Positions 40,562-61,094 are shown, counted from the first letter of the stretch. The stretch is DNA of 64,000 nt from Acutalibacteraceae bacterium (GCA_045598065.1 JAZLLJ010000030.1:7832-71831), one strand, 5' to 3'. Translations and numbers: made by a program. Notes: generated from the letters alone by a model not told the origin.

Positions 40562-41332
40562 TTATTCTTCGGTCTCGTCAATTTCCGGCGTTTCCTCGTC
40601 AGGTTCTTCATCAAGAGCGGCTTGCAGTTTCTCCAATTTAGCTTTCATCTTCTGTTTTTTCCGCTCTTTCTTTTCGGCGGCGGCGCGTTCTTTCATTTCC
40701 GCCTTGTACGCTTTTTTCTCCTCTTTGGTCATTGTTTTCTCGATGACTTTTTTGTCCTCGTCGGTCGCATCCTTCTTGGCTTTCTTAATCTTCACCACAT
40801 CCAGGCGTTCCAACTCGTAAGGAATATTCCGACTCCACTTCCAAAACGCGTGAGCAGCGTTAAGGCGCGCAATCAGCGTACGAGCGGTCACTACCGTCAT
40901 CTCCACGGCCTCCTCTTCCTTGTCGAGAGAAAGAAGAAGTACCGAGGGGTTATAGAGGACCGGGGCGTAAAAGGTGGCAATTTGGTCGGGATCAGCATCC
41001 AGAAGCACACGCCGTCCGAGGTTTTGCAAAGATTTGTCGCCCTCTTCAAGCAATTTGCGCGCCCGTTGTTTTTTTCGGGTATCGCCGGTTTTACGGTTCT
41101 TTTTCTTTTCCTCTTTAGAGAGCACGTCCGACGACGACTCCTCTTCCGAGAAACGATAGCGGCGCTTGATCGCCGTAACACCAAATACACGAGCAAAACC
41201 CGTCCCGTTAAACGTGCCAAGCATCCGCATTTTCACCGATTCCCGAGCGGCCACGATGCAAGTATCGTAGTATGCGATATATCCCAACAGAATGCGGCGT
41301 ATTTCTTTTTTTACATCATTGATGTCGCTCAT
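40562..41332 (-). CDS. hypothetical cytoplasmic protein (256 aa) with a Lys/Glu-rich tail; last gene of the T4SS-like operon
   Basis: Long ORF with no TM segment. Contains basic and acidic low-complexity stretches (KKKNRKTGDTRKKQRARK; C-terminal KERAAAEKKERKKQKMKAKLEKL...EEPDEETPEIDETEE). No family recognised. Confidence 0.6.
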   Translation of the reverse strand: MSDINDVKKEIRRILLGYIAYYDTCIVAARESVKMRMLGTFNGTGFARVFGVTAIKRRYRFSEEESSSDVLSKEEKKKNRKTGDTRKKQRARKLLEEGDKSLQNLGRRVLLDADPDQIATFYAPVLYNPSVLLLSLDKEEEAVEMTVVTARTLIARLNAAHAFWKWSRNIPYELERLDVVKIKKAKKDATDEDKKVIEKTMTKEEKKAYKAEMKERAAAEKKERKKQKMKAKLEKLQAALDEEPDEETPEIDETEE

Positions 41333-41371
41333 AACGGCTCTCTCTTTTCTAAAAGTTCGCGAATATACTGA

Positions 41372-42142
41372 TTATTCCGCTTCGGTCGAAACCGGCGCAA
41401 GAGTTACCCACTCGTGCGAGAGGATTGAAAATCCGCCATCGTCGTTGTGCTGCAATTCCACTTTCAAGGTATCGTTGTTTTTCGCGTCGCGAATATAAAT
41501 CAGACAGTTTTCCGTGCCGGAGCAAGCGAACGAATATCCGACAAGCGACACGCCGTTACCGACTTCTTCGCCCATATCCATTTTCTCATACTTCACTTCA
41601 CCGCGCATCGGGAAAAATTCCCATTCGGCATCTTCTTTTCCGGCAACGGTGACCGCAAAGCTACCGTCTGCCAGTTGTTTTACGGTATAGGAATCACTCT
41701 CAATGTCATCAGCCATTTCTTTGTGGCTCAAAGCCTTGTACGTGACCTTTTGCCCTTGCGCCGTTGCCGTCATGAAAATCTGACTGCGAACATCCGTGCG
41801 AGAGAAAACGTCTCGCAAAGAGAACGTCAAGCAAGACTCGCCGGACATCAACGGCTTAATAAGGAACGTAGTTCCTTCTTCATTGGTGCTTTCAAGAACG
41901 GTGGACAGCGTGTTTCGCTCGTAGTCCGTGACAACCCACTCGTATCCTTCGAGAGAGCCTTTGATAAACAGTTTAATGTTGTCACCGTCTTGCGTCACGG
42001 TACACGGATATTTCGCGCTGCTGTCGTCCGCGTTCAGCGGAACAATCGCAGGCTTTTTGGGCGTGCAAAGCCACAGAATCAAGAGCGCCACCGCCAAAGC
42101 GACCACGATACCCAAAACAATCCATATCACTTTCTTTTTCAC
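41372..42142 (-). CDS. hypothetical N-terminally membrane-anchored extracytoplasmic protein (256 aa)
   Basis: One N-terminal TM helix (IWIVLGIVVALAVALLILWLC) followed by a ~225-aa beta-rich domain. No family recognised. Confidence 0.6.
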   Translation of the reverse strand: MKKKVIWIVLGIVVALAVALLILWLCTPKKPAIVPLNADDSSAKYPCTVTQDGDNIKLFIKGSLEGYEWVVTDYERNTLSTVLESTNEEGTTFLIKPLMSGESCLTFSLRDVFSRTDVRSQIFMTATAQGQKVTYKALSHKEMADDIESDSYTVKQLADGSFAVTVAGKEDAEWEFFPMRGEVKYEKMDMGEEVGNGVSLVGYSFACSGTENCLIYIRDAKNNDTLKVELQHNDDGGFSILSHEWVTLAPVSTEAE

Positions 42143-42172
42143 AACGATGTCCCCCTTGATACGTGGTAAAAC

Positions 42173-45100
42173 TTATTCGGTCACAGAAGTTGTTGTCGGT
42201 TCGGTAACTTCCGTTTCCGAACCGGAGGCGACGGTTTCCGTCGTCTCCGGCGAAGTCTCTTCGGTAGGTGTCGGCTCGGTAGATGCTGTCGTCGGCTCAG
42301 TGGTCGTGAGCATCGTGTTTTCCGCCTCAACGCTGATTTCCACTACCGCCTGAACAGCCGGGTTTTCATCCGACGTGATAATCACACGGTACACTTCGAT
42401 TCCACCGGTCGTGTTCCGCGGCGAATCAAACACAATCTGACTGCCGTTTTTCGTGAAGCAATCCACTTCGGAAACCGCGTCGCCGACCGCTTTGACCGCC
42501 GACACCGTGTACCCGTATCCGGCAAGCGAACCGTTCACTGTCGGTTTAATCGTCACCTGATCGCCGGAGTACACGAGCACCGCGCTCTTCCCTTGGGAAT
42601 CGCTGTTGATGGTGCTGGATTTTTCAACTTTGCTGTTATAGAAACTGGTCTTCGTCGAAATCGAAATGTTGCACAGGTTAATCGTGCGCGGATCACCCTC
42701 ACGGATAATCGGATCGGACAATTTACGCTCAGCCAACTGCTCTTTGCCGTCAACAATCGTCCGCACTTTGAGATTTTCTATACCCCACGCCGCCTGGCTG
42801 TACGGCTCCTTGGAGTGCGGTTCAATAACGACATACCGAATCTCACTGCAATTCTTCATCAGGAAACTAAACGTTGCCGTTTTGCCGGCTTCCAGTTTCC
42901 CGTCGGTCATATAGGCACGCACGTCGTCGATGGCCATCGTACGGGTTTGGCGACCATCCTGGCTGACATAACCAATCGTCATGCGAATGGGATCCGCCGT
43001 AGACGAACTTACAACATCTGTGCTTTCCGCGGTAGTAACGGTAATTTCCACGGGCGCAACGTTGACATCCGTCACACTCATCAGTACCGGAGTAGCTGTA
43101 AGTTTGGCCGCTGCCGCGAAGTTATACCATTTGGTCGGCGTGCTGGTATCACCCTGTATCGGATAGCAACCCACCGTCATTCCGTCCACCGAAGCATTGA
43201 CGCTGCCGGTGCCGGCGACGGTAATGCCGGTAATCTCTTTCAGGTTGGGGATAGCAAAAGGAACCTGAACGAGCAATCCCGGTTTCACAGCCGCATACTT
43301 CATAATTTCCTGTCCATCAGCATCCTTTGTCTTCACATCCGTCAGGAAAACGTACGGCGAACTGTATTCTTTCCCCAGAGGATCGCCTTTCAGCGTATAG
43401 CGAATCGAAATAGCCACATCGGATGCCTCGGCAACCAAGCCGGAGGCAACCGTGTCCTTACCAAACAGCATCGTAACGATCTGCTGTTCAGTGGATATGG
43501 AATGCTTGCTCGAGGGGAATTGCTCACCGGTACTGCTGAATACGTTGATGGGATTTCCAGTACCCGGCGTATGATAATCCATATAGTAATATCCGATAAC
43601 CACACCGGAACGTACGTGCTGAACAATCATATGGTCCACCAAAGCGCTGACCTTATCCAAACTGGGCACGACGAGGTTCGTCTTGTTCAGCGTGGTAAAG
43701 CCGTACGCCGTGATGCCGGTAGCATAGAACACTCTGTCGGTAGTATCGTAGTTAAGACCGTTGACCGTCATTCGCATCGGGCCGTCGTGATCGGAAGATT
43801 CATACGTCAACTCCGCTCTGAGGTCATAGACCTTGGTGGTCTGCCCGTTCGATACTTTCACCGGTGACTGAGCGTTTTCCGCCATATAGACGTACACGTT
43901 CAGTGAATCGTTTCTATTTTCCGGTTTACGGGTGATCGTAGAGGACCAACCCTCTTCCGATTCCTTCGTTACAATAGTGTTGTCCTCAAAAGTGATTACC
44001 TGGTTACCCTCATCTTGGTTCGGAGGAAGAATGACGGCATAAGTATTTTGATCGCTCTTGGTAATCAATTTCATCTGATTATCGGTGTGACGTTGGAACT
44101 CATCCACGCAGTTTAGACGAAGCGTGCCGTTCTCCAACAACTGCCACACTTTCACTTCCTTGATGTTCCACGTTGTACCGTACACGTCGCGTGCAAAGAG
44201 TTCTATTTTCTTAATAGAAGTCACATCCGTCAGACTGATAAAGAAACGGTCGGTATGTCCCTCGCGGAACATATATTCGCGGTTGCTGACAGCGCAGACC
44301 ACTTCTCCGCCGCTCTCGCCGGTCATTTTGCCGAGTGACTTACCTTCACGTGTCTCGTAGCGAGGTTGCTGACCGTTGTACTCGTACATCTTCTGGACAA
44401 CGTCAAAGTTCTTCTTTTGTTCTCCGTCTTTATTGATGTAGGTAACCGTCGCCGTCACTGTTCCTTCAAACTGACTATCGAAAGCCTCACCCGAATACGT
44501 ATCCTCGGCGGCCACATTATACGGATCCGTCGTAATGGAGACCATCAAGTTGGAACTGACGCCCTTTCCGGAGACCGTAAACTCACGCACCAAGTCGCTG
44601 GCGTTACGGCCTTGAAGACCGGACGCCGTGTTTTTCGGCGCATCGTCGCGGTAGTCAATCTTAATCCATCCGACGTTGTCGAAGAACCACGAAGTCGAAG
44701 CCACCGCCGAACTTTTCTTCGTCACGGTGATACTCTTGATATTCAATTTATCGAAAATGTCGGTGCTCTCGTTGGTATCCGAATCGTCCGGCAAAATGCG
44801 AATCGCCGTCAAGTCGCCGAGGTCTTGGTTCGTATAAATGGTAAACGATTCTTTCTCACCGGCACGGAAACCGTCTGCCGTCAACTGTTGGTTTGCGAGA
44901 ACGTACCCACTGTTGCCGCCTTGGAACGTCAACTGGAAGTAGAACAAGTTTTTCGAGCCGGTGTCACCGTCTTTTTCGTTTGCGGAATCGTTGCCTGCCA
45001 CCTGGACTTCCACCTCATAGGTTCCACGAACACGGTTGAAGCCCAGATCCTGCATCGACTCCTTGTAGGTCATAGAATGCTTCAGTTTGTTCCAGTCGAG

Positions 45101-47131
45101 ATCGGTTTCGACGTCGCTTTCTTTGTTTTCGGAACTTTCTTCAAATTCCCCTTTACGGTTGGCGGTCTCTTCATCGCCACCGTTCACATAAATCGGCTCT
45201 TCACCGGGTTTCTCCTTGTCAGAGGCGCCATAAGAGCACATAATCGTCGATTTATCGAAATCACGGGTAATAATCCAGTTGGAAGTGACTTTGCCGGTAC
45301 CGGCGCCCTCTCCCCGTTCATGAAGTTCCAAAACGCGATGGCCGATCCATTCGGGATCGTAGATGATAAGGCTCTTCATCTGCCAGTCGTCGGCGTAGGT
45401 GGAATTCATAGATATATCAAACGACTTGAATTGAGAGACATCGTCCACATCCATAAAGAACATAATCTCTCCACCGGGACGCAGCCCATAATAGCGATGG
45501 TAATCCGGAAATGCCGAACCGTCATCGTAGAATACGTTATCATAGTACGGCCAATATCCATAGAAATCCTCGGGTGCGGTAATCAATGAGTAGGTTTTGG
45601 TGGTTTTGGTAACACCGGAGGTGGATTGATAGGTGAATTTAATTTTCACCTCAGACGTCGTGCCTGCATCTTTGGGCGTATCGGTCTTGATAACGACCAC
45701 GTAGCGACCTTTATAATCGGGCGACAAATCAGCACCGGTGTCATTTTCTTTCACCGAAAGCGTTTTCGGCGAGTCATAAGACAGCGTAATACCGCTGTTT
45801 CCTTCCGCCATCACATACGCAATCGGAATACCGTTGATAGTGTAGAACAAATCCGTCTCACCGTCACCGGTATATTCCAGTTGATCAACATTCTTATACA
45901 GTTTGAAGGACGAAATGGACAGCGTATCTTTTTCGAGTTTATCTTTCGTCCAGTTCTCTAAATCCGGTGAGAGTCTCCCTGAAACGGTGTTTTTAATCCC
46001 CGCGAGTTCAGGCACATCCAAGGTGTAGGACAGTTTGCAGGAAGTCATTTTCTTGAACGCAGGAAGCTTACCGGAGAACACTAACTGCTCTCCCTGCTGC
46101 AACACTTTCCACGGGCACAACGCTTTGTCGTATTCAGCATACCCGTTTTCCGTCGACCACGCAGCCGCGCTGGAAAGCACCGGGAGTTTTGCTGAATACG
46201 AAACACCGCCGACATCTTCATAGGTGATATCCAGCATCAGCACCTCTTTGATAAGTATCATATCCCGGAACGGACACTCGATCATCATTTTTTCAATACC
46301 GGCTTTATAAAAATCCGCAATATCGATTTCAAACAAGTATTCGTCGCTGTCATGGGTGGAATACGCCTCGTTGTTACCGCTGACGAACTGGTAATCGCCG
46401 CCGGAGGGGGCAAAGCAAAACACCTTGTCATTGCCGGACAGGTTTAAATCCACCGTCTTGTTGAAAGAGTAAATCGCTTTGCCGGAGAAATCAATGAACA
46501 GACTGGTAGAATAATATCCAATCATCTGCAGGCCGTAAAGCGTTTCCACTTTATAAATGCTGATACCTTTACAGGTCCACCCCTTCTTGTAGGTAGAAGA
46601 GTAATGTTCGTGAACGTCCACCGAGGTAATGCTGTCCACCGTGTAGTGCGGCGTAAACAGAATCTCATCGGTACTGTTGGGCATCAGCATATTGCTCGAC
46701 ATTAGATTATCAATGTCAACGGTATAGCCGGTATAGTTTTCGACGTTGCTCAGGCGTTTTTCCAAACCGCTGACAGACATCGCTAATTCATAGGTACTTT
46801 CTTTCGGATGGGAATTCGGCGACACAAATTCCACACGGGACACGCCACCCTTGTCCTTATAATGCACTGCAAAATAACTGACGTCCGCGCCGCCGTTGAC
46901 ACCGGTGGAAACGCGAAGGAGATAGGTGTTTTCACAGGCTTTCCCTTCCTGTGAAGCAACACTAACACCGCCGGATGACTTACTTATCCCTTCGTTTGCC
47001 GCAGATGCCGGCAAAGCAGGTGCAATATAAGGCATGACAAAGCAGAGGATCAGCAAAAGCGCCGTAAAACGCCATACTGTCCTCTTTGCTTTTTGCAAAG
47101 AATGCCGTGTTGTCGAGTGTTCCATAGCCAT
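42173..47131 (-). CDS. giant secreted protein (1652 aa) built from repeated beta-sandwich (PLAT/LH2-like) modules with a Thr/Glu/Pro-rich C-terminus
   Basis: Signal-like N-terminus (FTALLLILCFVMPYIAPALPASAANEG). At least 6-8 modules follow the pattern Y.v.v.T....G(T/A)....v...f....G......f.....d...i..i.i......W....i.v. No LPXTG motif and no C-terminal TM. Confidence 0.75.
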   Translation of the reverse strand: MAMEHSTTRHSLQKAKRTVWRFTALLLILCFVMPYIAPALPASAANEGISKSSGGVSVASQEGKACENTYLLRVSTGVNGGADVSYFAVHYKDKGGVSRVEFVSPNSHPKESTYELAMSVSGLEKRLSNVENYTGYTVDIDNLMSSNMLMPNSTDEILFTPHYTVDSITSVDVHEHYSSTYKKGWTCKGISIYKVETLYGLQMIGYYSTSLFIDFSGKAIYSFNKTVDLNLSGNDKVFCFAPSGGDYQFVSGNNEAYSTHDSDEYLFEIDIADFYKAGIEKMMIECPFRDMILIKEVLMLDITYEDVGGVSYSAKLPVLSSAAAWSTENGYAEYDKALCPWKVLQQGEQLVFSGKLPAFKKMTSCKLSYTLDVPELAGIKNTVSGRLSPDLENWTKDKLEKDTLSISSFKLYKNVDQLEYTGDGETDLFYTINGIPIAYVMAEGNSGITLSYDSPKTLSVKENDTGADLSPDYKGRYVVVIKTDTPKDAGTTSEVKIKFTYQSTSGVTKTTKTYSLITAPEDFYGYWPYYDNVFYDDGSAFPDYHRYYGLRPGGEIMFFMDVDDVSQFKSFDISMNSTYADDWQMKSLIIYDPEWIGHRVLELHERGEGAGTGKVTSNWIITRDFDKSTIMCSYGASDKEKPGEEPIYVNGGDEETANRKGEFEESSENKESDVETDLDWNKLKHSMTYKESMQDLGFNRVRGTYEVEVQVAGNDSANEKDGDTGSKNLFYFQLTFQGGNSGYVLANQQLTADGFRAGEKESFTIYTNQDLGDLTAIRILPDDSDTNESTDIFDKLNIKSITVTKKSSAVASTSWFFDNVGWIKIDYRDDAPKNTASGLQGRNASDLVREFTVSGKGVSSNLMVSITTDPYNVAAEDTYSGEAFDSQFEGTVTATVTYINKDGEQKKNFDVVQKMYEYNGQQPRYETREGKSLGKMTGESGGEVVCAVSNREYMFREGHTDRFFISLTDVTSIKKIELFARDVYGTTWNIKEVKVWQLLENGTLRLNCVDEFQRHTDNQMKLITKSDQNTYAVILPPNQDEGNQVITFEDNTIVTKESEEGWSSTITRKPENRNDSLNVYVYMAENAQSPVKVSNGQTTKVYDLRAELTYESSDHDGPMRMTVNGLNYDTTDRVFYATGITAYGFTTLNKTNLVVPSLDKVSALVDHMIVQHVRSGVVIGYYYMDYHTPGTGNPINVFSSTGEQFPSSKHSISTEQQIVTMLFGKDTVASGLVAEASDVAISIRYTLKGDPLGKEYSSPYVFLTDVKTKDADGQEIMKYAAVKPGLLVQVPFAIPNLKEITGITVAGTGSVNASVDGMTVGCYPIQGDTSTPTKWYNFAAAAKLTATPVLMSVTDVNVAPVEITVTTAESTDVVSSSTADPIRMTIGYVSQDGRQTRTMAIDDVRAYMTDGKLEAGKTATFSFLMKNCSEIRYVVIEPHSKEPYSQAAWGIENLKVRTIVDGKEQLAERKLSDPIIREGDPRTINLCNISISTKTSFYNSKVEKSSTINSDSQGKSAVLVYSGDQVTIKPTVNGSLAGYGYTVSAVKAVGDAVSEVDCFTKNGSQIVFDSPRNTTGGIEVYRVIITSDENPAVQAVVEISVEAENTMLTTTEPTTASTEPTPTEETSPETTETVASGSETEVTEPTTTSVTE

Positions 47132-47226: not shown

Positions 47227-47532
47227 TTATCCGTTATCAATATGCAAAAGCCCTGCAAATCCGGTCATTTCAAATACTTCCATCACCATACGGTTAACAC
47301 GGCGAAGGACCAGTTCTCCCTCTCGCTTACGCATTTTGATGTGGAGATTTTTAAGAATGCGCAGACCGGCGGAAGAAACGTACTCCATTCCTTCCATATT
47401 CAAAATCACACGGGAAAACCGTTCGGAAACGTTTTCAAAAATCGTTTCCATTTCCTTTGACGTTACCGAATCCAGTCGGCCCATCAGAATGAGTTCTCCT
47501 TCATCCCCTCGGTTAATCAGTTTTACTTTCAT
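47227..47532 (-). CDS. STAS-domain protein (anti-sigma-factor antagonist, SpoIIAA/RsbV-like)
   Basis: About 101 aa from MKVKLINRGDEGELILMGRLD. Conserved phospho-serine context MEYVSSAGLRIL. The ORF extends to 47571, but the internal Met gives the normal STAS length. Confidence 0.8.
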   Translation of the reverse strand: MKVKLINRGDEGELILMGRLDSVTSKEMETIFENVSERFSRVILNMEGMEYVSSAGLRILKNLHIKMRKREGELVLRRVNRMVMEVFEMTGFAGLLHIDNG

Positions 47533-51556: not shown

Positions 51557-54280
51557 TTATTTTTTATTTTGGTTTCCCGGAAGTGGCTTCGGATTACTCA
51601 GCGGATCGTAAATTCTCTTCGGCGGAGACTTTTTCTTCGGAACATCCACCGCCGCATTGCTCGCTTGAACGTTGCCGTTGTTCGCCGGGACGGCGTTGTT
51701 GTTCGCCGGGACGGCGTTGTTGTTCGCCGGGACGGCGTTGTTGTTCGCCGGAACAGCGTTGTTGTTCGCCGGAACAGCGTTGTTGTTCGCCGGAACAGCG
51801 TTGCCGCCGCCTTGGTTTCCACCACCGACATTACCGCCTCGGTTTCCACCGCCGACATTACCGCCTTGGTTTCCACCACCGACATTACCGCCTTGGTTTC
51901 CACCACCGACATTACCACCTTGGTTTCCACCGCCGGCTACGTTGCCGCCGTTTCCGCCTTGGTTTCCGCCCTTCGGCTGCGCAGGCTTACTCGGTGCCGG
52001 AGCAGGTTTCGATTGGTCCGCACCCACGGCATCCTTACCGTAATACACACCGCCGAGGCCTTTTCCGTCATGGCCTTTTTTGTAGGCATCGTTCTCGGCT
52101 TCGGTATACTTTTTGCCGTTTTCGGCGCGGCCGACGTACTGTTCACCGCGTTCGTTTTTGCCAAGACCTTTCAGCATGGACTGGCGTTCCGACTCGGTAA
52201 ACGCATTGCCCATATCGTCTTTACCAACGTAGGCCTCACCGTCGGCATTAGTGCCAAGACCATAGTCTTGCTGACTCTGCGGAAGCGGTTGTTCGCCTTC
52301 GACATTCGTACCGTTTTCATTGTTCAAAGAGGTAGTGCTTTCCGTCTGGTTCTCGTTTCCGTTGCCCTGCTGATTACTCGGAAGCACGCCGTTTGTATTG
52401 TTGTCTTCGGTATTATTAGCCGTGTTCGTACCGTTTTGGTTAGTGTTATCCGTGGTGGTGTTGTTGTTATTATTATCCTTTTGCTGGTTGTCGGGCAAGC
52501 CATTAGAGTTGTTGTTATTGTTATTGTTGTTGTTTTCGGCTTTCTTCGCAACAGCACCAGCAGCGGCCGCACCGGCAGCGCCGGCAACACCGGCGCCGAC
52601 TTTTTGCGCCAATTTCGCCGCTTTTTCTTTCTTCGCAGCTTCTTTCTTATCCTTTTCGCGATCTTTTTTCGCCTGTTTCTTCTCGCCGAGCGGATCATCC
52701 GGATCCTCGCCGCCGAAGTGCTTACCGAAGTGACGGCCGAACTGACGGTCAGCCAAATCGTTGGTATTCGATGCCTGGATAGCGGCAAAGCCCGCGTTGT
52801 TCGCCAAGATACCGGTGAGGATGCCGCTGAAACGGCTGACACCTTCCATCATACCGGTGATAAGTAAACCTTTGGCAACCACGTTTAACGTGGCGGAAGG
52901 AAGCAGAATCAAATTCGAATCCATCACCATAGGAACGAACAAAATGACAAGACGCATGGGAATAATGTTGCCGAACACGCCGAACATCTGGATAATCATA
53001 GAAGTCGTCCACTCCTTAAAACGACGACCGTCATCCAAAGACATAGTCGCCGCAAGAGGAGGCGCAATAACATAAAGTCCGACAATGTTTACAAGACGTG
53101 TGCAGCAGTTGAGGATACAACGGTACAAGTTTTTCAGTACCCAATATCCCACAAACCAAATCATAAAGTAGGAAATACCGCCAAGCTGATAACGGAAAGC
53201 GGATTTCACGTCGCTAAACGAATAAATGCTCTTTTCGCCGGTATAGAACGCACCGCGCAATCCATCAGAAACACTGGGATTCTTGTTAAAGTTATCATTC
53301 TTCGCCGCATTCATCGTTCCCATAAGGAACACCACGCGGTCAAGGGATGCGCTGTCGGCAGAAGTATATTCGTTTTTGTAACTCTTCAGTGCACGGAAAC
53401 TGGCATCCGTTCGGAGAATATCCATAATATCGGTAAGTGCCTGCGAAGTCTCCGGATAATAGAGATCCATGCTCAACTCGTTTTCGGGGTTGGCCGCATA
53501 TACCAACCGTTCGAGCTCACTTTGCCAGGTATGTATCGGTTTTTGCTCTTCGTCCCGGGTGGGATACACCAAATCGAATATCCCTTTGTCCTGCAAATAG
53601 AGCAGTTTAGGACGAATTTCGTTATAACAAGTATTCAAATTGTAACGATGGTTATACGTGGCGTTCATAGAATACTCATCAATGGTCGTGAGAATATCGA
53701 ACATCACGGCACGATCCTCGTCCGTAAATTCAATCTCTTGCTTTTGAGTAAGCGCTTTATTTTGGTCAAACACGTAACTGACACGCTCGATAAGGACGTT
53801 TGTAAAGGTCATCGTCACCGACATAACAGCGGTCAACATAACCATCACAAACAAACTTTTCAGCATACCGCCGATAATCTGTCCCAGCGACTGCTGCTGT
53901 TTGTCGTTGATATCGAACATCTTTCGCACCACGGCGATAATGGTGAACACAACGGCAAGGACGGCGCCTATCATTACCATTCCCCAATAGATGCCGTTGA
54001 TGGCCTCATTTTCAAAGAACAGGTTGGTCAGATAGGTAAAATCCTCTTTCATCTGCACCTTGCTGATGCCTGCAAACACCGCAAACACCGCGTATGCCGC
54101 TTTGATGATATCGCACCAGGCCCAGGTCAAGTAATAGCAAGCAATTCCAAGGCCTTCTTTGATCGCGTCAAGGATGGCATTACCGATGGCATCCGCGATA
54201 CTGTCAAATACATCGCCGATAACATCAACGATGGAATCAAACACATCGAAAATGCCCATTATTCCCAAGGATCGGAACAT
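51557..54280 (-). CDS. VirB6-like polytopic membrane protein (907 aa) with a ~400-aa Asn/Gly/Gln-rich low-complexity C-terminal region
   Basis: About 8 hydrophobic helices in the first ~500 aa with a large loop, and a position between VirD4-like and VirB4-like genes. The tail has a poly-Asn run, (GGNQGGNVG)n and (NNAVPAN)6. The VirB6 call rests on architecture only. Confidence 0.6.
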   Translation of the reverse strand: MFRSLGIMGIFDVFDSIVDVIGDVFDSIADAIGNAILDAIKEGLGIACYYLTWAWCDIIKAAYAVFAVFAGISKVQMKEDFTYLTNLFFENEAINGIYWGMVMIGAVLAVVFTIIAVVRKMFDINDKQQQSLGQIIGGMLKSLFVMVMLTAVMSVTMTFTNVLIERVSYVFDQNKALTQKQEIEFTDEDRAVMFDILTTIDEYSMNATYNHRYNLNTCYNEIRPKLLYLQDKGIFDLVYPTRDEEQKPIHTWQSELERLVYAANPENELSMDLYYPETSQALTDIMDILRTDASFRALKSYKNEYTSADSASLDRVVFLMGTMNAAKNDNFNKNPSVSDGLRGAFYTGEKSIYSFSDVKSAFRYQLGGISYFMIWFVGYWVLKNLYRCILNCCTRLVNIVGLYVIAPPLAATMSLDDGRRFKEWTTSMIIQMFGVFGNIIPMRLVILFVPMVMDSNLILLPSATLNVVAKGLLITGMMEGVSRFSGILTGILANNAGFAAIQASNTNDLADRQFGRHFGKHFGGEDPDDPLGEKKQAKKDREKDKKEAAKKEKAAKLAQKVGAGVAGAAGAAAAGAVAKKAENNNNNNNNNSNGLPDNQQKDNNNNNTTTDNTNQNGTNTANNTEDNNTNGVLPSNQQGNGNENQTESTTSLNNENGTNVEGEQPLPQSQQDYGLGTNADGEAYVGKDDMGNAFTESERQSMLKGLGKNERGEQYVGRAENGKKYTEAENDAYKKGHDGKGLGGVYYGKDAVGADQSKPAPAPSKPAQPKGGNQGGNGGNVAGGGNQGGNVGGGNQGGNVGGGNQGGNVGGGNRGGNVGGGNQGGGNAVPANNNAVPANNNAVPANNNAVPANNNAVPANNNAVPANNGNVQASNAAVDVPKKKSPPKRIYDPLSNPKPLPGNQNKK
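51668..51803. repeat. 21-bp in-frame tandem repeat, 6 copies (3+3 subtypes)
   Basis: GTTGTTCGCCGGGACGGCGTT x3 then GTTGTTCGCCGGAACAGCGTT x3, encoding NNAVPAN x6 on the minus strand. Confidence 0.9.
51811..51970. repeat. 27-bp in-frame tandem repeat, about 5 copies
   Basis: CTTGGTTTCCACCACCGACATTACCGC units with few substitutions, encoding GGNQGGNVG repeats. Confidence 0.9.
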
Positions 54281-54318: not shown

Positions 54319-55275
54319 TCAACGCACACGCAATTTCTTTCTGGAAACAACAAGATACGCAATGAGTCCTCCGAGCGTCGCCAACAACAGCAGGGCAAAC
54401 GCGACAGCGGACAGGTTAAAATAAATCAAAATGCGGAAATTATAGGTAGTTTCATTGCCTGCGGCATCCGTGAGAATCAGGTGGTAGACACCGCTTTGTG
54501 TCAATTTGTCTTTCTTTTGAATTTCCCGATTGCCGAGCAGGATTTTAATGGAAACATCCGGCTCCAAATCGGAAATATCCACCGGGCCTTTGGCCACGTT
54601 GTTTTTCACCGCTTCCAATTTCAATGTCGGCGGCGTGTGATCCACTTCAACGCTAAGGGTGTACGGATGGTCAATCACATCACAGCGATAACTGATTGTG
54701 TATTTTCCCTCCGCAGACATATCCGCCACGTTAAAACTAAACGGAGCCTCCGCTCCATCGAGACGGGCATCTGTAATAGTAAACCCCTCAGGAACCATAA
54801 AAGTTTCAAGAAGTCCGGTTTTTTTTGCTAAAATTGTGAAGCGGAGGATTTGTTCGGCGCGAGTACCAACACCCGTAGCCAACAGAATGTATTCTCCGGT
54901 TTCTTCGATGTGGTCATAATCCACATCCTTCACCGTTTCTCCGTCACGGGTAAGTGTCGGAGTGACGCCGGCGGGAATTTTTATTTTCACCGGTTCCGTC
55001 GTGTACATTCCATCCGCCACAGAAGCATAAAAACTACCTTCCGGCGTAACGGTTTCTTTGGTATAGCAAAACATTCCCTCGTTTTTATCGTACCAGGTCG
55101 TTTCGTTGACACAAACAAGCGTGTAGCCGGTTTCCTCGTCCAGAGGTTGGTCGGTATCGGGGTTGATTTGTTCGATGGTGGTGGAAACCGCCGCTGCATT
55201 GAATCCAAGCGACATACACAGCACAACCGTCAAAACTATCGCAATAAGCTTTTTCACGTTCTCCACCCCTCTCAC
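54319..55275 (-). CDS. hypothetical surface protein (318 aa): signal peptide, beta-rich ectodomain, C-terminal TM anchor
   Basis: N-terminal LIAIVLTVVLCMSLGFNAAAV, C-terminal LSAVAFALLLLATLGGLIAYLVVSRKKLRVR. Its start overlaps the stop of the upstream VirD4-like gene by 4 nt. Confidence 0.65.
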   Translation of the reverse strand: MRGVENVKKLIAIVLTVVLCMSLGFNAAAVSTTIEQINPDTDQPLDEETGYTLVCVNETTWYDKNEGMFCYTKETVTPEGSFYASVADGMYTTEPVKIKIPAGVTPTLTRDGETVKDVDYDHIEETGEYILLATGVGTRAEQILRFTILAKKTGLLETFMVPEGFTITDARLDGAEAPFSFNVADMSAEGKYTISYRCDVIDHPYTLSVEVDHTPPTLKLEAVKNNVAKGPVDISDLEPDVSIKILLGNREIQKKDKLTQSGVYHLILTDAAGNETTYNFRILIYFNLSAVAFALLLLATLGGLIAYLVVSRKKLRVR

Positions 55276-57269
55276 TGCTTCAGCACGGTAGCGTTTCGTG
55301 CCTTGATATCATAAAACGCTTCATCCGCTCGGAAAATGTGAGAACGAATCTCGTCCAAATCCATCCGACCGAACTGATAGAAGTCGCATTTGTATGACGG
55401 GGTGTATTTGGTCATCAGCGGATAGTTACCGAACGTCACGATAATGGCGTTACCGGTCGAGGTTTTATTGTTAAGTTTTTGCAAATCCGACGGATAAATA
55501 AGCGGACGAGTCTGCAACTGGTTACTGACGTTCATATCGCCGTCTTTCGAACCGAGACCGGCGGAAGTCGAAGTGGTACGCACCGTTTTGTTACCGCACA
55601 ACTCCGAGAACTCTTTACAAGTGCCGATATCGTTCGAACCGATAAACATTTTCAGCGCACAGTTGGATTTCACAACGTCCGCCACGCCCTCGCCGTAAAT
55701 ATTGTTGAGCTGGGCGTAACTCTGCACCACCATATTGAACCAAATCTTACGGCTACGACCGACGGTAATCATCTTGTCGAATTTCTCGATACGCGGCATA
55801 TTACCGAACTCATCGAGGATGAAATACACGTTGCGCGGCAAAGACAAATCCTCGCGCGCGGACGCGACTTTAATTAAACCCTTATAGAGACTCAGGATAA
55901 ACAACGACGCCAATCCGTGTCGAGTATCCTTTTCGTCCGGGATTTTAAGGAACAACGCCGTGGGACGTTCGGCGAATTGTTCGGCGCGGATATCCGTGGC
56001 CGAAGTCAAGCCGCAAATGCCGCGGTCGTTGAAAATATTCAATTTATCGAAGGTAATAGACATATAGCTGGAAAGCGTTTGATCCGCCGCCGCCAACACC
56101 TGGCGAGACAGCGACACCGCTTGGGACAGTTTGCTTCTGCCCTCAAAATAGCGTTTTAAATGGATATAGTTTTTCTCACTGTTAGTGAGAATCTTGTTAA
56201 GATTAAAGAAATTGAATTTCTCCTTGGTCATGCCGAGGCGTTTATCTTGGCTGTCTTCGAGCATGGCAATGCAGGTCGCCAAAATGATAGAACGGGCACC
56301 TTTTTCCCACAAGGGATCTTTTTCGTTGGTAATGGGGCAAATACCCGAAATGAGGTCGTTTAAGTCCTCGTACATCTCATCGTAAATGCGCTGTTTCGCC
56401 ACAGAAACGTCGTCCTGACAGTGGCGAAGGTCCGTATACGCTTTGCCGTCCCACTCGCACCACACCTCACCGGCAGGCTCGTCATCCATCCGCTTAAGGG
56501 ACGGATAATCATCAAGGCTGTCGCGGTGAGCAAGGATATCCTTGCCCATCTCGGCGTACTGCTGATACATATCCCAAACGGATTCCAACGGATTCCAACG
56601 GGAGGAAGAATAGGTGTCGCGCAAATCGAGCACCATCACGTCATAACCGCGGGATTTCAGGAATTTGGAGTGCATATCGAACAACTCGCCCTTCGGGTCG
56701 GTCATCACCATGCTGGAACCGCAGTTGGTCGCGCCGATTAACTGAATCATGGGGTTAATAAACGTGGTGGTTTTACCGGAACCGGTAGAACCGATAACAA
56801 GCGCATGCGCACCGGACATCATATTGATGTGCATTTGCCCTTTTTTGTCCACAATCGCACGCAACGGCGCGCCGTCTTTCTTTGCATTCGGCAGCATTTC
56901 ATAGGTCAACGGGGTAAACAACTTATCCCGTTCTTTTTCGGTCATATAGCGGCTGTTCTCCAACACGGATTCCACGTCGCCGTTTTTACCTTTTCCCATA
57001 ATGTTGTGACCGCGGCCGAAGTTGCTGCCCATAAAGACCAAAAGCAAAACCAGCGCCACAATCACAAAGCCGGTCAGCCACGTACCGATGGACACCAAAT
57101 ATTTCCAGTAGAGCACGAACGATTCGCCATGAATGATACCTCGTGCGTTGGCAATAATATTACGCAACAGAAAGCCCAAAAGGCCTGCTCCGAACAATGC
57201 AATCGCGCCATACGCAATCAACTTGTCCAGAGGCAGGCTTTTAAACCAATCTTTGAGTTTGTTCATCAT
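55272..57269 (-). CDS. VirD4/TraG-type type IV coupling protein
   Basis: 665 aa. Two N-terminal TM helices. Walker A IGSTGSGKTT is encoded at 56766-56795. The FILDEFGNMPRIEKF...GRSRKIWFNMVVQSYAQLNNIYG block is typical of T4CPs. Confidence 0.85.
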   Translation of the reverse strand: MMNKLKDWFKSLPLDKLIAYGAIALFGAGLLGFLLRNIIANARGIIHGESFVLYWKYLVSIGTWLTGFVIVALVLLLVFMGSNFGRGHNIMGKGKNGDVESVLENSRYMTEKERDKLFTPLTYEMLPNAKKDGAPLRAIVDKKGQMHINMMSGAHALVIGSTGSGKTTTFINPMIQLIGATNCGSSMVMTDPKGELFDMHSKFLKSRGYDVMVLDLRDTYSSSRWNPLESVWDMYQQYAEMGKDILAHRDSLDDYPSLKRMDDEPAGEVWCEWDGKAYTDLRHCQDDVSVAKQRIYDEMYEDLNDLISGICPITNEKDPLWEKGARSIILATCIAMLEDSQDKRLGMTKEKFNFFNLNKILTNSEKNYIHLKRYFEGRSKLSQAVSLSRQVLAAADQTLSSYMSITFDKLNIFNDRGICGLTSATDIRAEQFAERPTALFLKIPDEKDTRHGLASLFILSLYKGLIKVASAREDLSLPRNVYFILDEFGNMPRIEKFDKMITVGRSRKIWFNMVVQSYAQLNNIYGEGVADVVKSNCALKMFIGSNDIGTCKEFSELCGNKTVRTTSTSAGLGSKDGDMNVSNQLQTRPLIYPSDLQKLNNKTSTGNAIIVTFGNYPLMTKYTPSYKCDFYQFGRMDLDEIRSHIFRADEAFYDIKARNATVLKQ

Positions 57270-57362: not shown

Positions 57363-59381
57363 TCAGCGATAAAAAACGTTTTTTTGACCGGACACGGTTT
57401 TCGCGGCGTTATCCATTTTGAGGGTTCCGTTTAACACCGTGGTTCCTTCGTTGTTGAAATAACTACCGGAACTACCGAAAAAGTCTGCCTGGGCTGCCAT
57501 TTTTTCAAGTCCGTCAATGGTCGCATTGTTGGACTTATCATTAAGAATTTTCGGTCCGGGAGTGAATTTTTTTGCATAAAAACCGGCAAAAATACCGGCG
57601 CCACCCCGGTTTTGCACCTCTCCGTCTTCAATCGAAATACCGTTCGGCAACACCATAACGCCCATATTCAGCACCGTTGCCCCTTGGTACACGTACAGAG
57701 GTTGGCCGGACTCACTTCCCATATACAAGGCGGCTTCATTCATTACAATCAATTCGCCGCCGCAATCGTCATACGACGTGGGATCGTCCGTAGTTTTATT
57801 TTCCGCCATATAGTCGCGGATGACTTGGTCACGGTTGGCAATGAAATCATCATAGTCCTCGCGCAACTTTGCCGTATCTTCCTTCAGTTTCTGTTCCTCT
57901 TTTTCCAAGTCTGCAAGAGCCGCCTCAATGCTGGCTCTATCCGTGGGAGAAGCATACTTCAGAGAGGCATTATACGCCAGACGTCTTGATTGGATGGTGG
58001 CATACGGAAGAGAAAACTGCGTTCGCCACGATTCTTCATATTCCGCCAGTTTTTCTTCGTATTTTTCCGTGGCTTTTTTCACGTTGTCGCGGAAGAAGGT
58101 ACTGGAAAATTCCACAGTACTGCCATAGTTATTGATACACCCTTCCGAACCGTTGTCGGTGCATATCGCGGAGTCATTGTTGATGACAATCGTACCGCAG
58201 TTTTCAATCGTACCGCGGTTGTACAAAATACCGGACACCGTCAAGGTGGCACCGGGTTCAATCAACAACCGCGTGCCTTCGTCGATAACGGTATTGCTTT
58301 TGGCGTTGTACGTCGAACCTTTGGTAATGGTGTAGTCTTCTTTAATATCCATCATTTCACGGGAAGTACCGTAGTACAGCGCAAAGTTACTGGTACAAAG
58401 AGGCGGAATTCCTATCAACGGACAGACAACAGCAACACCGGCACCGTCATAACAAAGACCGTATGGAGAAATTTCACCTTCGATACAGAAGGGTAACTGC
58501 ACTTTATCGGGATCGACAAGTTTCGTACCAAATCCGAAAAATCCGGGTTCATTTTTGTTGTCAGCAGTAAGCACAGCACACTCAACATTCGTTAAATACG
58601 TGCCGTTGCCCCAATCCAAATCTAAAGAACCAACAACAATAGGAGACGACATCACACTCAGACTTTTGCCGTCGCCCTTGAAGAGCACGATAGGCGTTCC
58701 TTCATCGGTGTATTTTTTTACATCCATACTCAATTTCGAGTTGTTCTCGGCGGTATAAAACACGTCCGAATCAATCGAAACACCGGAAAGATCGGAGATT
58801 TTCTTTCCTTTCAGCGGTCTAGCAAACGAAAAGTCCCCTGAGCCGGATATCCAAAAGCGCTGCGCCGCCGGGCTTGTCGCCCAGCTTTCTTTGCTGTTTC
58901 CGGCCACGTTATCGCGGAAAGCATCCAACAAGTTGCTGTTGTTGGCATTTGCTACAAAATAGTCGTCAAAACTGTTGTAACCGCTGATAGCACTTTCTTG
59001 CGTTTCCTGCAGATATTTCTTATATGCGGTCAGCATATCAGCAGGCATATTCGCCACGTTACGGCTGGAGATACCGTCGAGATAGAACGAACGGAAAGTG
59101 GATTCTCTTTCGGTTCCCGACAGGGCATACGTCGTTCCGTCGGCAGCCTCCCAGCAGATGTACACCGGCACGTTTTTGCCCACAAAGGCCTTTAAATCGT
59201 TTTTGCCGGTCACACGTTTCCATTCCCATACGGTGGTTCTGCCTCCATTCGCAGAATCGGTTGCTCCCGCCGATGCCGGAACGGCATAGACGGCAAGCAT
59301 GGATGCCGCCGTAAGGCAGGCAAGCGAGAAGGCGAGCATATGTCGCATATTCGATTGAATTCTCTTGAAAACGGCTTTCAT
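57363..59381 (-). CDS. hypothetical secreted protein (672 aa) with a central coiled-coil segment and Gly/Asn-rich beta-helix-like stretches
   Basis: Signal peptide MLAFSLACLTAASMLAVYAVPASA. Segment NRGTIENCGTIVINNDSAICTDNGSEGCINNYGSTVEF. Coiled-coil-like KKATEKYEEKLAEYEE...LADLEKEEQKLKEDTAKLREDYDDF. No family recognised. Confidence 0.65.
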   Translation of the reverse strand: MKAVFKRIQSNMRHMLAFSLACLTAASMLAVYAVPASAGATDSANGGRTTVWEWKRVTGKNDLKAFVGKNVPVYICWEAADGTTYALSGTERESTFRSFYLDGISSRNVANMPADMLTAYKKYLQETQESAISGYNSFDDYFVANANNSNLLDAFRDNVAGNSKESWATSPAAQRFWISGSGDFSFARPLKGKKISDLSGVSIDSDVFYTAENNSKLSMDVKKYTDEGTPIVLFKGDGKSLSVMSSPIVVGSLDLDWGNGTYLTNVECAVLTADNKNEPGFFGFGTKLVDPDKVQLPFCIEGEISPYGLCYDGAGVAVVCPLIGIPPLCTSNFALYYGTSREMMDIKEDYTITKGSTYNAKSNTVIDEGTRLLIEPGATLTVSGILYNRGTIENCGTIVINNDSAICTDNGSEGCINNYGSTVEFSSTFFRDNVKKATEKYEEKLAEYEESWRTQFSLPYATIQSRRLAYNASLKYASPTDRASIEAALADLEKEEQKLKEDTAKLREDYDDFIANRDQVIRDYMAENKTTDDPTSYDDCGGELIVMNEAALYMGSESGQPLYVYQGATVLNMGVMVLPNGISIEDGEVQNRGGAGIFAGFYAKKFTPGPKILNDKSNNATIDGLEKMAAQADFFGSSGSYFNNEGTTVLNGTLKMDNAAKTVSGQKNVFYR

Positions 59382-59447
59382 ACTACATCATCCTTCCGCT
59401 TGCCTGCCGTTATTTCACGGATTCGGCAAACAATTTACTCTCAAAAG

Positions 59448-59852
59448 TTACAGTTTGCTGGCGTCAATGACGTCGCCGCCGCTGACGTTGTCGTTCACCC
59501 ACTCGGCGAGGAGAGGCGTGACCAGGTTCAGGACAAGGATCAAGACGAAGATCAGCACGAAGCCGATAACCGCGTTTTGCAGGTGAGATTTCGCTTTCTC
59601 ACGATCCTGCGGCTCTTCCGCTTTGGCGAATTTCACACCGAGGATGATGCAGTACAGAGCGCCCACGGCAACGACGAGGACGAGGGCCGCCGTCATCAAC
59701 GTGCGGAGAAGGTTAACGATCGGGTCGGTAACTGCTTCCAGGCCCTCACCTTCCGCCAGAACGGCGAAGCCCATGAGCATCGCGGTGCCCATAATGGCAG
59801 CGAGACGCGCGGTCAGTTGTTTTGCGGTGAATTTTTTGCTGAGTTTTTTCAT
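59448..59852 (-). CDS. VirB2/TrbC-like pilin-type small membrane protein (134 aa)
   Basis: Signal-like N-terminus, then two hydrophobic helices separated by a short charged loop (KFAKAEEPQDREKAKSH), the canonical T4SS pilin topology. RBS GGAGGAAC. Confidence 0.55.
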   Translation of the reverse strand: MKKLSKKFTAKQLTARLAAIMGTAMLMGFAVLAEGEGLEAVTDPIVNLLRTLMTAALVLVVAVGALYCIILGVKFAKAEEPQDREKAKSHLQNAVIGFVLIFVLILVLNLVTPLLAEWVNDNVSGGDVIDASKL

Positions 59853-59920: not shown

Positions 59921-60367
59921 TTACATCATCGGTGCCTGTTTTTCCGGCACGTTCAGTTCCGGCTCATTTACCGTCACCGACACAAGATTGACGTCTTTCA
60001 GTTCGTTTTCGGCGATGCGTGTAAGCTCGTCGGTGAATTTGCCGTTTTCCAAATCGTGGCCGATTTCCTCAGGCGAGCGGTCAACCAACGCCTCAAACGC
60101 CGGCAACTCTTTCATCTGAGTGGCAAGCGCTTCCACGTCCGTTCCGGCAGGTAGACGGTTATTCTGTGCCAAACGGCCGACGGCGGCAGCAGCGGTCAAA
60201 TCGCGCATGTCGCTTTTCGACGCGGTATTTCCGAGCGATTTCAGCTCTTTTTCCGCCTCACGGCCCTTTTCAACGGCCTTGACGGTCGTCACCATGCTCT
60301 CGACCAGCTCTTTCGGAGCGCCGGCCGGTTCGCCGATGGCTTTCGATACTTTCTCTTTCGGTGTCAT
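59921..60367 (-). CDS. hypothetical soluble helical protein (148 aa), tightly coupled to the ECF sigma gene
   Basis: Starts 4 nt after the sigma stop codon. No TM segment and no HxxxCxxC zinc anti-sigma motif. Confidence 0.6.
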   Translation of the reverse strand: MTPKEKVSKAIGEPAGAPKELVESMVTTVKAVEKGREAEKELKSLGNTASKSDMRDLTAAAAVGRLAQNNRLPAGTDVEALATQMKELPAFEALVDRSPEEIGHDLENGKFTDELTRIAENELKDVNLVSVTVNEPELNVPEKQAPMM

Positions 60368-60371
60368 TCCA

Positions 60372-60833
60372 TCATCCCTCTAACTGCGTTTTGAGCGCTT
60401 CTCTTGCCCGCATTAGCGTGACCTTTATCGTGTTTTCCGGTTTGCCGAGAATCTCGGCAATTTCCTTAATCTTCAGGTCTTGTAGGTAGAACAGCGTAAT
60501 GACTTCCCGTTGGGCATCGGGAAGTTTTTGGATAGCGCGCCGCAAATCGAGAATTTCATCGTTTTCGGTGCGTTCCCCTTTGTCGTCGGTCAACCCTTCA
60601 TCCAACTCCACGTCGTACGTCCGGCCGGACAGCATATCTTTCGCGCAGTTGATGGTCACGCGAATGAGCCAGGCCTTGCGATGTTCCTCGCTTTCAAAGG
60701 AGCGTTCCTTCTTGAAATACGCGAGGAACGTCTCGGAGTAAACATCTTCCGCGTCAGCGGGGTTGCGAACATAGCGCATGGCAATTTTATACACCATGTC
60801 GGAATACGTGCGGACGATTTCTTCGCCGTTCAT
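60372..60833 (-). CDS. ECF-type (group IV) sigma-70 family sigma factor
   Basis: Region 2 (AEDVYSETFLAYFKK...KAWLIRVTINCAKD) and region 4 HTH (REVITLFYLQDLKIKEIAEILGKPENTIKVTLMRAREAL). The ORF opens at 60902; the start was chosen at MNGEEIV. Confidence 0.85.
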   Translation of the reverse strand: MNGEEIVRTYSDMVYKIAMRYVRNPADAEDVYSETFLAYFKKERSFESEEHRKAWLIRVTINCAKDMLSGRTYDVELDEGLTDDKGERTENDEILDLRRAIQKLPDAQREVITLFYLQDLKIKEIAEILGKPENTIKVTLMRAREALKTQLEG

Positions 60834-61094
60834 AAACAACACCCGCTCCTTTCGGGAAAGGTTACAACCCATCCAAATTTTTTGCGCAGCTTTTGGGACC
60901 ACAGTATCATATATACGCGCACATGATAGCCCAATTTCCCTTATTTTCGCATATTATATAAGAAAAGTCAACCCCTCTTTACAAGAAATAGTATAAATTT
61001 CTTCCATAATTCACCGTTTTTCGACCGACACCGGGGTTTTCGGAATATTTTTTCTCCTCTTTGCATAGCGTAAGACCAAAAAGGAGGCTTTTTT

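Follow-up and report, generated by a model that had tools for sequence, protein, structure and literature searches.

A relaxase-less type IV secretion cassette of gut-type Clostridia that probably serves a purpose other than its own transfer

The cassette described here occupies positions 40562-60902 of a 64,000-nucleotide stretch of DNA from an Acutalibacteraceae bacterium (GCA_045598065.1 JAZLLJ010000030.1:7832-71831, the window) and encodes a Gram-positive type IV secretion system (T4SS) in twelve co-directional open reading frames (ORFs) on the minus strand, g1 to g12, whose junctions are short or overlapping in an ORF listing of the window. It probably belongs, in intact form, to a separate relaxase-less lineage of Gram-positive T4SSs that arose from MobL-type conjugative elements, and it is itself likely non-conjugative. 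Because the translocon is intact but no gene for DNA processing or integration accompanies it, the cassette probably does something other than transfer itself. An initial annotation of the window had listed the twelve genes, all of which reappear at its coordinates, and had read them as a domesticated or repurposed type IV apparatus rather than an ordinary integrative and conjugative element (ICE).

Four of the products form a recognisable translocon (Table 1), and all four had been named correctly in the initial annotation. The VirB2-type pilin g3 passes the cut-off of NF045849 (Mbov_0395 pilin-like protein) with 60.7 bits against 40, and the VirD4-type coupling protein g5 (type IV coupling protein, T4CP), which has two N-terminal transmembrane helices, passes that of NF045973 with 291 bits against 250. 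Walker A (GSTGSGKT, residues 160-167) and Walker B are intact in g5, the former lying where it had been placed before. The polytopic VirB6-like g7, with transmembrane segments assigned by hydropathy, passes NF045848 and falls just short of NF045889 (Mbov_0396; 67.5 bits against 70). Its N- and C-terminal parts have no Pfam match at E up to 5 and a PDB sequence search with it gave nothing meaningful. The length of g7 differs among species from 610 to 989 aa, and its variable tail, rich in Asn and Gly, is encoded in part by 21- and 27-nt in-frame tandem repeats at 51636-51970.

The fused VirB3-VirB4 ATPase g8 begins with a two-helix membrane hairpin, called VirB3-like on hydropathy only, continues with an ATPase core at about residues 170-980 that carries Walker A (GKSGSGKS, residues 616-623) and Walker B (VVVIDE, residues 854-859) at the positions first reported, and ends in an acidic low-complexity extension of (EKPx)n repeats with a conserved motif of about 45 aa at its very end. 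The (EKPx)n stretch is coded by 12-nt in-frame tandem units (47731-47898), and these units and the repeats of g7 possibly represent slippage-prone linkers of variable length. The extension was also considered as a hidden relaxase or other enzyme domain, which its low complexity and the lack of any Pfam match at E up to 5 rule out. With NF045975, the equivalog for the VirB4 of mycoplasma ICEs, the protein scores 548.9 bits, below the cut-off of 590, and by this measure it is a relative of that equivalog and not a member. The calls of VirB4 and T4CP, whose failure would have overturned the first interpretation, have thus both survived profile search. Judged by its VirB4 ATPase, T4CP, VirB6-like protein and VirB3-like hairpin, the cassette is a monoderm (MPF_FATA-like) T4SS.

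The absences noted in the initial annotation are borne out by profile searches with Pfam and NCBIfam, in which none of the twelve proteins, those of no known family included, matches a relaxase, recombinase, replication, partition or wall-hydrolase family. Six-frame scans of the host genome for six relaxase families (PF03432, PF01076, PF02486, PF03389, PF08751 and PF18555, the last being MobL) found none of them, and neither did whole-genome six-frame scans of two carriers from other families, G382 and G045. As a positive control, the MobL scan does detect this relaxase next to the T4SS genes of genomes G412 and G638, and a tblastn search of the window with the G412 protein gave no match. There is no integrase or recombinase among the twelve proteins and the flanks are housekeeping genes; the rest of the genome was not scanned for integrases. 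The att-like direct repeats that had been suggested for inspection at about 40.5 and 61.0 kb are absent, apart from a chance-sized 16-mer inside coding sequence, and no tRNA gene lies within 24 kb of the cassette. The small cytoplasmic protein g12 has no Pfam, NCBIfam or PDB match, the PDB having been searched by profile as well. It was considered as a HUH relaxase or as a tyrosine or serine recombinase and rejected, as no His, Tyr or Ser is invariant across its seven orthologues (alignment A1). Neither a VirB1-like hydrolase nor the VirB8 family is matched by the twelve proteins or their orthologues, g10 having been folded over residues 60-1190 only. The missing wall hydrolase was set aside as a sign of repurposing because none is recognised in the MobL-bearing relative either. 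Judged on relaxase, integrase and att repeats with precise excision, the cassette would not be classed as an ICE.

The closest relaxase-bearing relatives are two complete and ordinary conjugative elements, L034:1113-19524 in G412 and L041:4538-21179 in G638, whose VirB4 is 41-44% and T4CP 43% identical to those of the window. Both run from a MobL relaxase through T4CP, a giant surface protein (1424 aa in G412), pilin, VirB6-like protein and VirB3-VirB4 to an ArdC-like gene, and G412 additionally has a DUF3846 gene and a DNA methylase. The relaxase of pLS20 is the archetype of the MobL (MOB_L) relaxases of Firmicutes (PMC5313138). The order T4CP, surface protein, VirB2-type pilin, VirB6-like protein and VirB3-VirB4 is common to these elements and the cassette, and tblastn (2e-13) shows g6 to be a homologue of the C-terminal region of the G412 surface protein. 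MobL, directly upstream of T4CP, and the ArdC-like gene are confined to the MobL elements, as are the DUF3846 gene and methylase of G412, whereas the extracytoplasmic function (ECF) sigma factor with its putative anti-sigma partner, the STAS protein, g4, g10, g12 and the VirB4 tail are seen in the cassette and not in these elements; upstream in G412 there is only a sigma region-4 helix-turn-helix protein.

Between the two stands a short form, found in G029 and G404, in which VirB4 is 53-55% identical to that of the window and lacks the tail, a STAS gene follows virB4 and MobL was not found. A maximum-likelihood tree of VirB4 unites the STAS-linked systems in one clade (SH-aLRT 94), with full support of 100 each for the long form and the short form, and the neighbours of this clade are the MobL-linked pair and a group of sequences from very small genomes. 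The relaxase-less, STAS-linked lineage would accordingly be a descendant of MobL-type conjugative elements of Clostridia, a view held jointly with that of a repurposed machine and, like it, thought probable rather than certain.

A VirB4 that is 44-45% identical to that of the window is also encoded in three genera, all from one Clostridia family and each with a genome of only 1.0-1.1 Mb (G761:C3:413255-415564, G560:C2:86503-88854 and G504:C2:73687-76041). T4CP, pilin and a VirB6-like gene lie near virB4 in G761; MobL was not found in G761 or G560, and in G504 there is one, interrupted by a stop and located on a different contig. These may be a second case of a T4SS retained in reduced genomes.

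Within the genus of the host the cassette has kept its place. G002 and G011 hold it whole between the same epimerase gene and yabP, in the same order and with all 12 ORFs intact, and G007 and G008 hold it at the same site and in the same order on contigs that end inside it, the parts present being free of stops and frameshifts. The comparison of this site, proposed in the initial annotation as a choice between conservation in place and variability, gave some of each, since the cassette sits in the same place in these four genomes, is lost from G006 and is present in five of the 12 species of the genus. Identity to the sister species falls from 91% for T4CP, 87% for VirB4, 86-88% for the sigma factor, 80-85% for STAS and about 72% for the pilin to 66% for g7, 59% for g6, 57% for g10, about 43% for g11 and about 33% for g4. 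Measured against G011, the ratio of non-synonymous to synonymous divergence (dN/dS) of T4CP is 0.066 and that of STAS 0.072; measured against G002, that of VirB4 is 0.082. These values are near the 0.04-0.06 of the flanking potA, epimerase and S1 protein genes; across the cassette the ratio ranges over 0.07-0.37, with three or four surface proteins at 0.17-0.37. Since synonymous divergence is like that of the flanks (dS 0.90 for T4CP against 0.87 for the epimerase and 0.86 for the S1 protein) and dN/dS is low, the cassette has co-diverged with its flanks under purifying selection, and the comparison shows that it persisted vertically at a single site in the chromosome while five species diverged. 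That 1.3% of a 1.6-Mb genome has been kept in this way argues that the cassette pays its way.

Its loss in G006, a member of the genus whose epimerase is 96% identical, has left yabP, about 100 bp, the 3' half of g12 and the epimerase gene. In this scar (L022:3815-4270) the remainder of g12 forms a 129-codon frame with a TTG start and the other 11 genes are gone, a structure that reads as an imprecise deletion of about 20 kb and not as site-specific excision. More distant members of the genus, whose valyl-tRNA synthetase (ValS) is 72-85% identical to that of the window, lack the cassette, and in them the epimerase gene is not next to that for S1. The ValS match of G011 (G011:C16:22753-25437) has one in-frame TAG within an open frame of 1133 aa.

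Beyond the genus, the same set recurs as sigma factor, g2, pilin, g4, T4CP, g6, VirB6-like protein, long VirB4, STAS, a PLAT protein some 1600 aa long, one or two small proteins and g12. It is found in other families of the order (G382 and G045), in Agathobaculum sp. GCA_022775115, in four further records of metagenome-assembled or uncultured genomes (L025 and L044-L046) and in a cultured rumen isolate, Pseudobutyrivibrio sp. YE44 of the Lachnospiraceae, a different order by NCBI naming. Pilin and T4CP are present in every variant. VirB4 has roughly 4000 homologues, and the records that hold the close ones bear the names Clostridiales, Eubacteriales, Clostridia, Agathobaculum and Candidatus Cacconaster-like bacteria. 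The flanks vary, and those of their genes that match a Pfam family have housekeeping or regulatory roles: response regulators and trmD-rimM-rpsP-ffh in Agathobaculum, FakA/DegV/plsX/acpP and mnmA in other cassettes, a hybrid kinase in another, a lipase and an oxidoreductase in yet another, and SpoIIE/HATPase_c_2/STAS modules in L025 and L043. No relaxase or integrase occurs in the spans read around these cassettes. Of 400 species sampled from the order, six, spread over five families, have a VirB4 match at E<=1e-150, as do 5 of 398 genomes from elsewhere in the class.

Identity to the window for ValS is 96% in G011 and 61% in both G382 and G045; for T4CP it is 91%, 73% and 68% in the same three genomes, for full-length VirB4 88%, 63% and 58%, and for the VirB4 core (residues 170-980) 93% in G002 and G007, 77% in G382 and 74% in G045. 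ValS is thus more conserved than VirB4 and T4CP within the genus, whereas between families the VirB4 core and T4CP are more alike than ValS, which argues that the cassette has moved horizontally. The simplest reading of these identities is that it passed between families after they had diverged, and by the same token it is an accessory module able to move, to settle for long periods and to be lost. A search of a plasmid database found no close plasmid-borne form, the best VirB4 relatives being less than 30% identical (on plasmids of Spiroplasma citri and Bacillus thuringiensis). The first interpretation is supported in its core: a repurposed apparatus that is not an ordinary ICE agrees with the absence of relaxase, integrase and att sites, the one site kept and the separate clade, but 'domesticated' is too strong for a module that is accessory, rare in the order, deleted in one sister species and moved between families.

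The cassette carries regulators of its own. The ECF-type sigma factor g1 matches TIGR02937 with 101 bits against a cut-off of 42.9 and consists of regions 2 and 4 only, as is the rule for group 4. Its start, the ATG at 60833, is conserved among species (alignment A7), in agreement with the initial annotation; the mechanical ORF reaches a GTG at 60902. The TTGACT and TGnGAnAAT elements of the promoter-like site upstream are conserved in G011 and G002 in the same alignment. The next gene product, g2, is conserved in every long-form cassette and has no match in Pfam, in NCBIfam (any anti-sigma family included) or, meaningfully, in the PDB, even when searched with a g2 profile. A predicted complex of g1 and g2 scores 0.70, the best of three controls 0.34; of 80 solved complexes 58 score that high, and of 110 mismatched pairs 2 do, figures that are only rough where a pair brings its own alignments. 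At least 58% of contacts agree between runs, the pLDDT of the partner is at least 73, and residues 3-36 of g2 are placed against sigma regions 2 and 4. Because solved complexes of ECF sigma and anti-sigma factors exist, the score may reflect likeness to these and not binding. The model makes g2 a likely candidate for a soluble anti-sigma partner of g1, in line with the sigma partner first proposed.

The STAS protein g9, also foreseen in the initial annotation and of anti-sigma-antagonist type, is encoded directly 3' of virB4 and matches TIGR00377 with 59.4 bits against a cut-off of 53.45. Its motif Y-[VI]-S-S-A-G-L-R is invariant in 10 orthologues and presumably corresponds to the loop that bears the phosphorylated serine in antagonists of the SpoIIAA/RsbV type. 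The pairing of virB4 and STAS is retained even in the short-form relatives G029 and G404. Genes for a SpoIIE-type PP2C phosphatase and a HATPase_c_2 kinase, absent from the cluster in the window, lie directly downstream of the cassette at two unrelated loci, L025:20043-22523 (an uncultured Oscillospirales-type contig, with a second STAS among these partner-switching genes) and L043:20649-25214 (Pseudobutyrivibrio sp. YE44). Within the window, about 37 kb from the cassette STAS gene, 9122-10603 on the minus strand encodes 493 aa that weakly match PP2C-type phosphatases of the SiaA/RssB kind; the product could be a partner of STAS proteins.

The initial annotation had also counted four secreted, anchored or cytoplasmic proteins of no recognisable family. 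This holds for g4, g6, g11 and g12, and g2 likewise matches no family; g10 contains a PLAT/LH2 domain. The domain, of a type that binds lipids or membranes, lies at about residues 680-840 and is the best-conserved part of this large secreted protein, for which there are 178 homologues and which has a tail rich in Thr, Glu and Pro, no LPXTG motif and no C-terminal anchor. An AlphaFold 2 model of residues 60-1190, built on a 73-sequence alignment, is all-beta (pLDDT 83.8, pTM 0.70), with beta-sandwich domains arranged around the PLAT domain. Foldseek aligns about 155 residues of it with the PLAT domains of lipoxygenases and of pancreatic lipase-related protein at probability 1.0, matches multi-C2 ferlins and the immunoglobulin-like domains of PrgB weakly, and finds no hydrolase fold in the modelled part.

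The secreted g4 is the fastest-evolving gene of the cassette, with 33-35% identity within the genus and a dN/dS of 0.37. It retains repeats of the type G-x-L-x-N-x-G-x-I-x-N-x-G, typical of a beta-solenoid. In its AlphaFold 2 model the mean pLDDT is 58, with values of 65-92 across most of residues 330-600; Foldseek returned nothing at E<=0.001, the top weak rows being TibA, Ag43 and pectate lyase. For both g4 and g10, PDB sequence searches gave nothing meaningful and an ESM Atlas feature search no usable match. The g4 family comprises 103 representatives at 50% clustering, and no wall-hydrolase domain occurs among the 54 members scanned. One of these 54 (alignment A8) has a PI-PLC-X phospholipase C domain (3.1e-11). 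Taken with the PLAT domain of g10, this domain hints at membranes as the target. The anchored g6 has 53 homologues, none with a Pfam domain. The poorly conserved g11 matches no Pfam or NCBIfam family; it is 42-45% identical within the genus and 24% identical to a 383-aa protein in G382.

Three systems invite comparison. The T4SS of mycoplasma ICEs supplies the best named NCBIfam matches for the pilin-like protein, the VirB6-like protein and VirB4 (Mbov_0395/0396/0397 and MMCAP2_0565/0566). According to a 2025 T4SS review, it is a minimal monoderm system with no recognised VirB1 or VirB8, and these ICEs excise, integrate and transfer, moving both ICE and chromosomal DNA (PMC12857230). The cassette differs in having no mobility gene, in its walled host and in the added sigma factor, STAS and PLAT protein. 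The T4SSs of Patescibacteria are described as chromosomal, mostly relaxase-less systems of monoderm (MPF_FATA-like) ancestry in small genomes, with VirB2-type pilins, and as proposed to be co-opted for a non-conjugative role (PMC12102498; PMC12857230). Being chromosomal, relaxase-less and pilin-bearing they offer a parallel in concept: in that different phylum T4CP is usually unlinked and non-essential, pilins occur in arrays and VirB1-like hydrolases lie nearby, whereas the cassette has its T4CP inside the operon and strongly constrained, one pilin, its own regulators and the PLAT protein. The 89K island of Streptococcus suis encodes a Gram-positive VirB/D4-type T4SS that is reported to export a protein and not DNA alone (PMC12857230). 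This system, likened to the cassette here by description, is borne on a pathogenicity island that is mobile and includes homologues of VirB1 and VirB8. A literature search on T4SSs in Oscillospiraceae, on PF18895 and on relaxase-less Firmicute T4SSs, incomplete in coverage, found no description of the cassette.

It is proposed that a signal would make g2 let go of the sigma factor, possibly with the STAS protein as a phosphorylatable antagonist in a partner switch, and that the operon would then be transcribed and the translocon assemble together with the pilin and the surface proteins. The proteins g4 and g10 would contact a target surface or membrane, and the coupling ATPase would feed a cytoplasmic substrate into the channel, more likely a protein than the DNA of the element itself. 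With its charged tail, g12 would be the first candidate for such a substrate. Protein is favoured over DNA because no relaxase was found in the host genome, and the strong constraint on T4CP argues against a role confined to a pilus.

Several points weigh against a non-conjugative machine. Function and substrate are deduced from sequence, the host genome is a draft in 98 contigs, and the VirB4 tree comprises 19 rows from a quick search with long outgroup branches and was used for grouping and not for the order of events. A cryptic enzyme could reside in g6, g11, g12 or the C-terminal third of g10, and the horizontal movement could mean that the cassette still transfers itself. One alternative is that it remains a DNA-transfer machine, served by an unrecognised initiator of its own or by relaxases that mobilisable elements supply in trans, or moving origin-less chromosomal DNA as mycoplasma ICEs reportedly do. 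The coupling protein, 91% conserved, keeps PF02534 together with the DNA-transfer domains PF10412 and PF12696, so a DNA substrate is possible; the closest named families are the mycoplasma ICE proteins, whose related VirB4, VirB6-like and pilin-like proteins serve DNA transfer in the account already cited; the cassette has crossed families with its core better conserved than ValS; and G011 and G002 each have one PF03432 relaxase on another contig. DNA transfer, though a serious rival, is nevertheless unlikely, given that the six relaxase families were not found in the host genome, G382 or G045, that g12, the sole unexplained cytoplasmic protein, lacks an invariant His, Tyr or Ser, that there is no integrase, att repeat or tRNA site, that five species share one site at which dS equals that of the flanks, and that the relaxase-bearing relatives form a separate branch of VirB4.

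The pilin kept in every variant, the fast-evolving surface proteins, the resemblance, by a weak match, of the g4 beta-solenoid to autotransporter adhesins and the PLAT, C2-like and immunoglobulin-like domains of g10 would all suit an organelle of adhesion, in which the pilin with g4, g6 and g10 fastens the cell to particles, host mucus or other cells without translocating anything. Assembly of the VirB pilus of Agrobacterium is independent of the coupling protein, yet here T4CP is present in every cassette and among its most constrained genes. A pilus has been proposed for the T4SS of Patescibacteria, but according to the same review no T4SS-made pilus has been demonstrated in a Gram-positive bacterium (PMC12857230). 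An organelle of this kind alone is therefore thought improbable. That the cassette is merely the decaying, non-functional remnant of an ICE that lost its relaxase and integrase is very hard to credit. The patchy presence in the genus, the scar in one species and the rarity in the order would fit decay, and such polymorphism combined with flanking repeats had been named at the outset as its signature; the polymorphism is there, but repeats are not and the deletion in G006 is imprecise. All twelve frames are moreover intact in the window, G002 and G011, the parts in G007 and G008 are undisrupted, dN/dS stays low throughout, the Walker motifs are intact, and the same relaxase-less set, with its added genes, is conserved across families and in Lachnospiraceae.

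The repurposed, non-conjugative machine, if this is what the cassette encodes, would bear on a question described as open and long-standing in the 2025 review, namely whether a Gram-positive T4SS dedicated to effectors or other purposes exists, nearly all known functions of Gram-positive T4SSs being DNA transfer (PMC12857230). More speculatively, and only as a tentative suggestion, it might be the first widespread dedicated non-conjugative T4SS of Firmicutes, controlled by the sigma factor and partner switch, in which g10, with its PLAT domain, and the variable g4 engage the membrane of another cell and T4CP delivers protein, or DNA independently of a relaxase, into neighbouring bacteria or host cells. 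What the data provide is a coherent and conserved family of relaxase-less T4SSs in common gut and rumen Clostridia, with its own regulators and large surface proteins and an identifiable conjugative sister group, and the existence of a cultured carrier, Pseudobutyrivibrio sp. YE44, makes the question of a non-conjugative T4SS testable. For annotation it follows that a locus in Clostridia with VirB4 and T4CP but no relaxase is not necessarily a broken ICE.

Table 1. Coordinates of the cassette genes and associated sites in the window
Feature	Position	Strand	Evidence and character
Promoter-like site	60943..60971	-	TTGACT, 17 nt, TG-extended GAAAAT; consensus scan, sequence match only
g1, ECF-type sigma factor	60372..60833	-	PF08281 7.2e-19, PF04542 6.6e-15
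g2, candidate soluble anti-sigma factor	59921..60367	-	148-aa cytoplasmic protein; no known family
g3, VirB2-type T4SS pilin	59448..59852	-	Signal sequence and two hydrophobic helices; PF18895 9.8e-12
g4, secreted 672-aa protein	57363..59381	-	Signal peptide; predicted beta-solenoid core ~330-600 and coiled-coil hairpin 429-515
g5, VirD4-type coupling protein (T4CP)	55272..57269	-	PF02534 7.9e-51, PF12696 4e-31, PF10412 4e-27
g6, 318-aa surface protein	54319..55275	-	Signal peptide, C-terminal membrane anchor
g7, VirB6-like polytopic membrane protein	51557..54280	-	NF045848 (MMCAP2_0566) 101 bits, cut-off 90
g8, VirB3-VirB4 ATPase, 1297 aa	47572..51465	-	PF19044, PF12846, NF045975 1.7e-164, NF045971 8.4e-45
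g9, STAS protein, anti-sigma-antagonist type	47227..47532	-	PF01740 8e-14; mechanical ORF to 47571
g10, secreted 1652-aa all-beta multi-domain protein	42173..47131	-	PF01477 (PLAT/LH2) 2.4e-06
g11, 256-aa protein	41372..42142	-	N-terminal membrane anchor, extracellular domain (topology); poorly conserved
g12, 256-aa cytoplasmic protein	40562..41332	-	Conserved core of ~170 aa, then Lys-rich and acidic tail
Bidirectional terminator-like hairpin	40522..40557	.	Perfect 16-bp inverted repeat, 4-nt loop, A-run before, T-run after

The host, a gut-type member of the Clostridia whose genome is 99% complete, has a single VirB4 gene, that of the cassette, and the G+C content of the cassette is not distinct from its surroundings. 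A look-up of public sequencing runs for 55272-59852 listed none. Profile matches agree with the core-gene boundaries first drawn: on one side lie an ABC ATPase, two permeases and a solute-binding protein (potABCD-like) with an aldose 1-epimerase, and on the other YabP and YabQ, both above their NCBIfam cut-offs, followed by DivIC. The hairpin between g12 and the convergent epimerase gene, common to the 3' ends of both, was likewise recovered within one nucleotide of its first placement. Further off in the window, two large minus-strand ORFs with no NCBIfam match at 1e-10, 14030-16117 (695 aa) and 11094-12371 (425 aa), lie beside valS and two tRNA-Leu genes.

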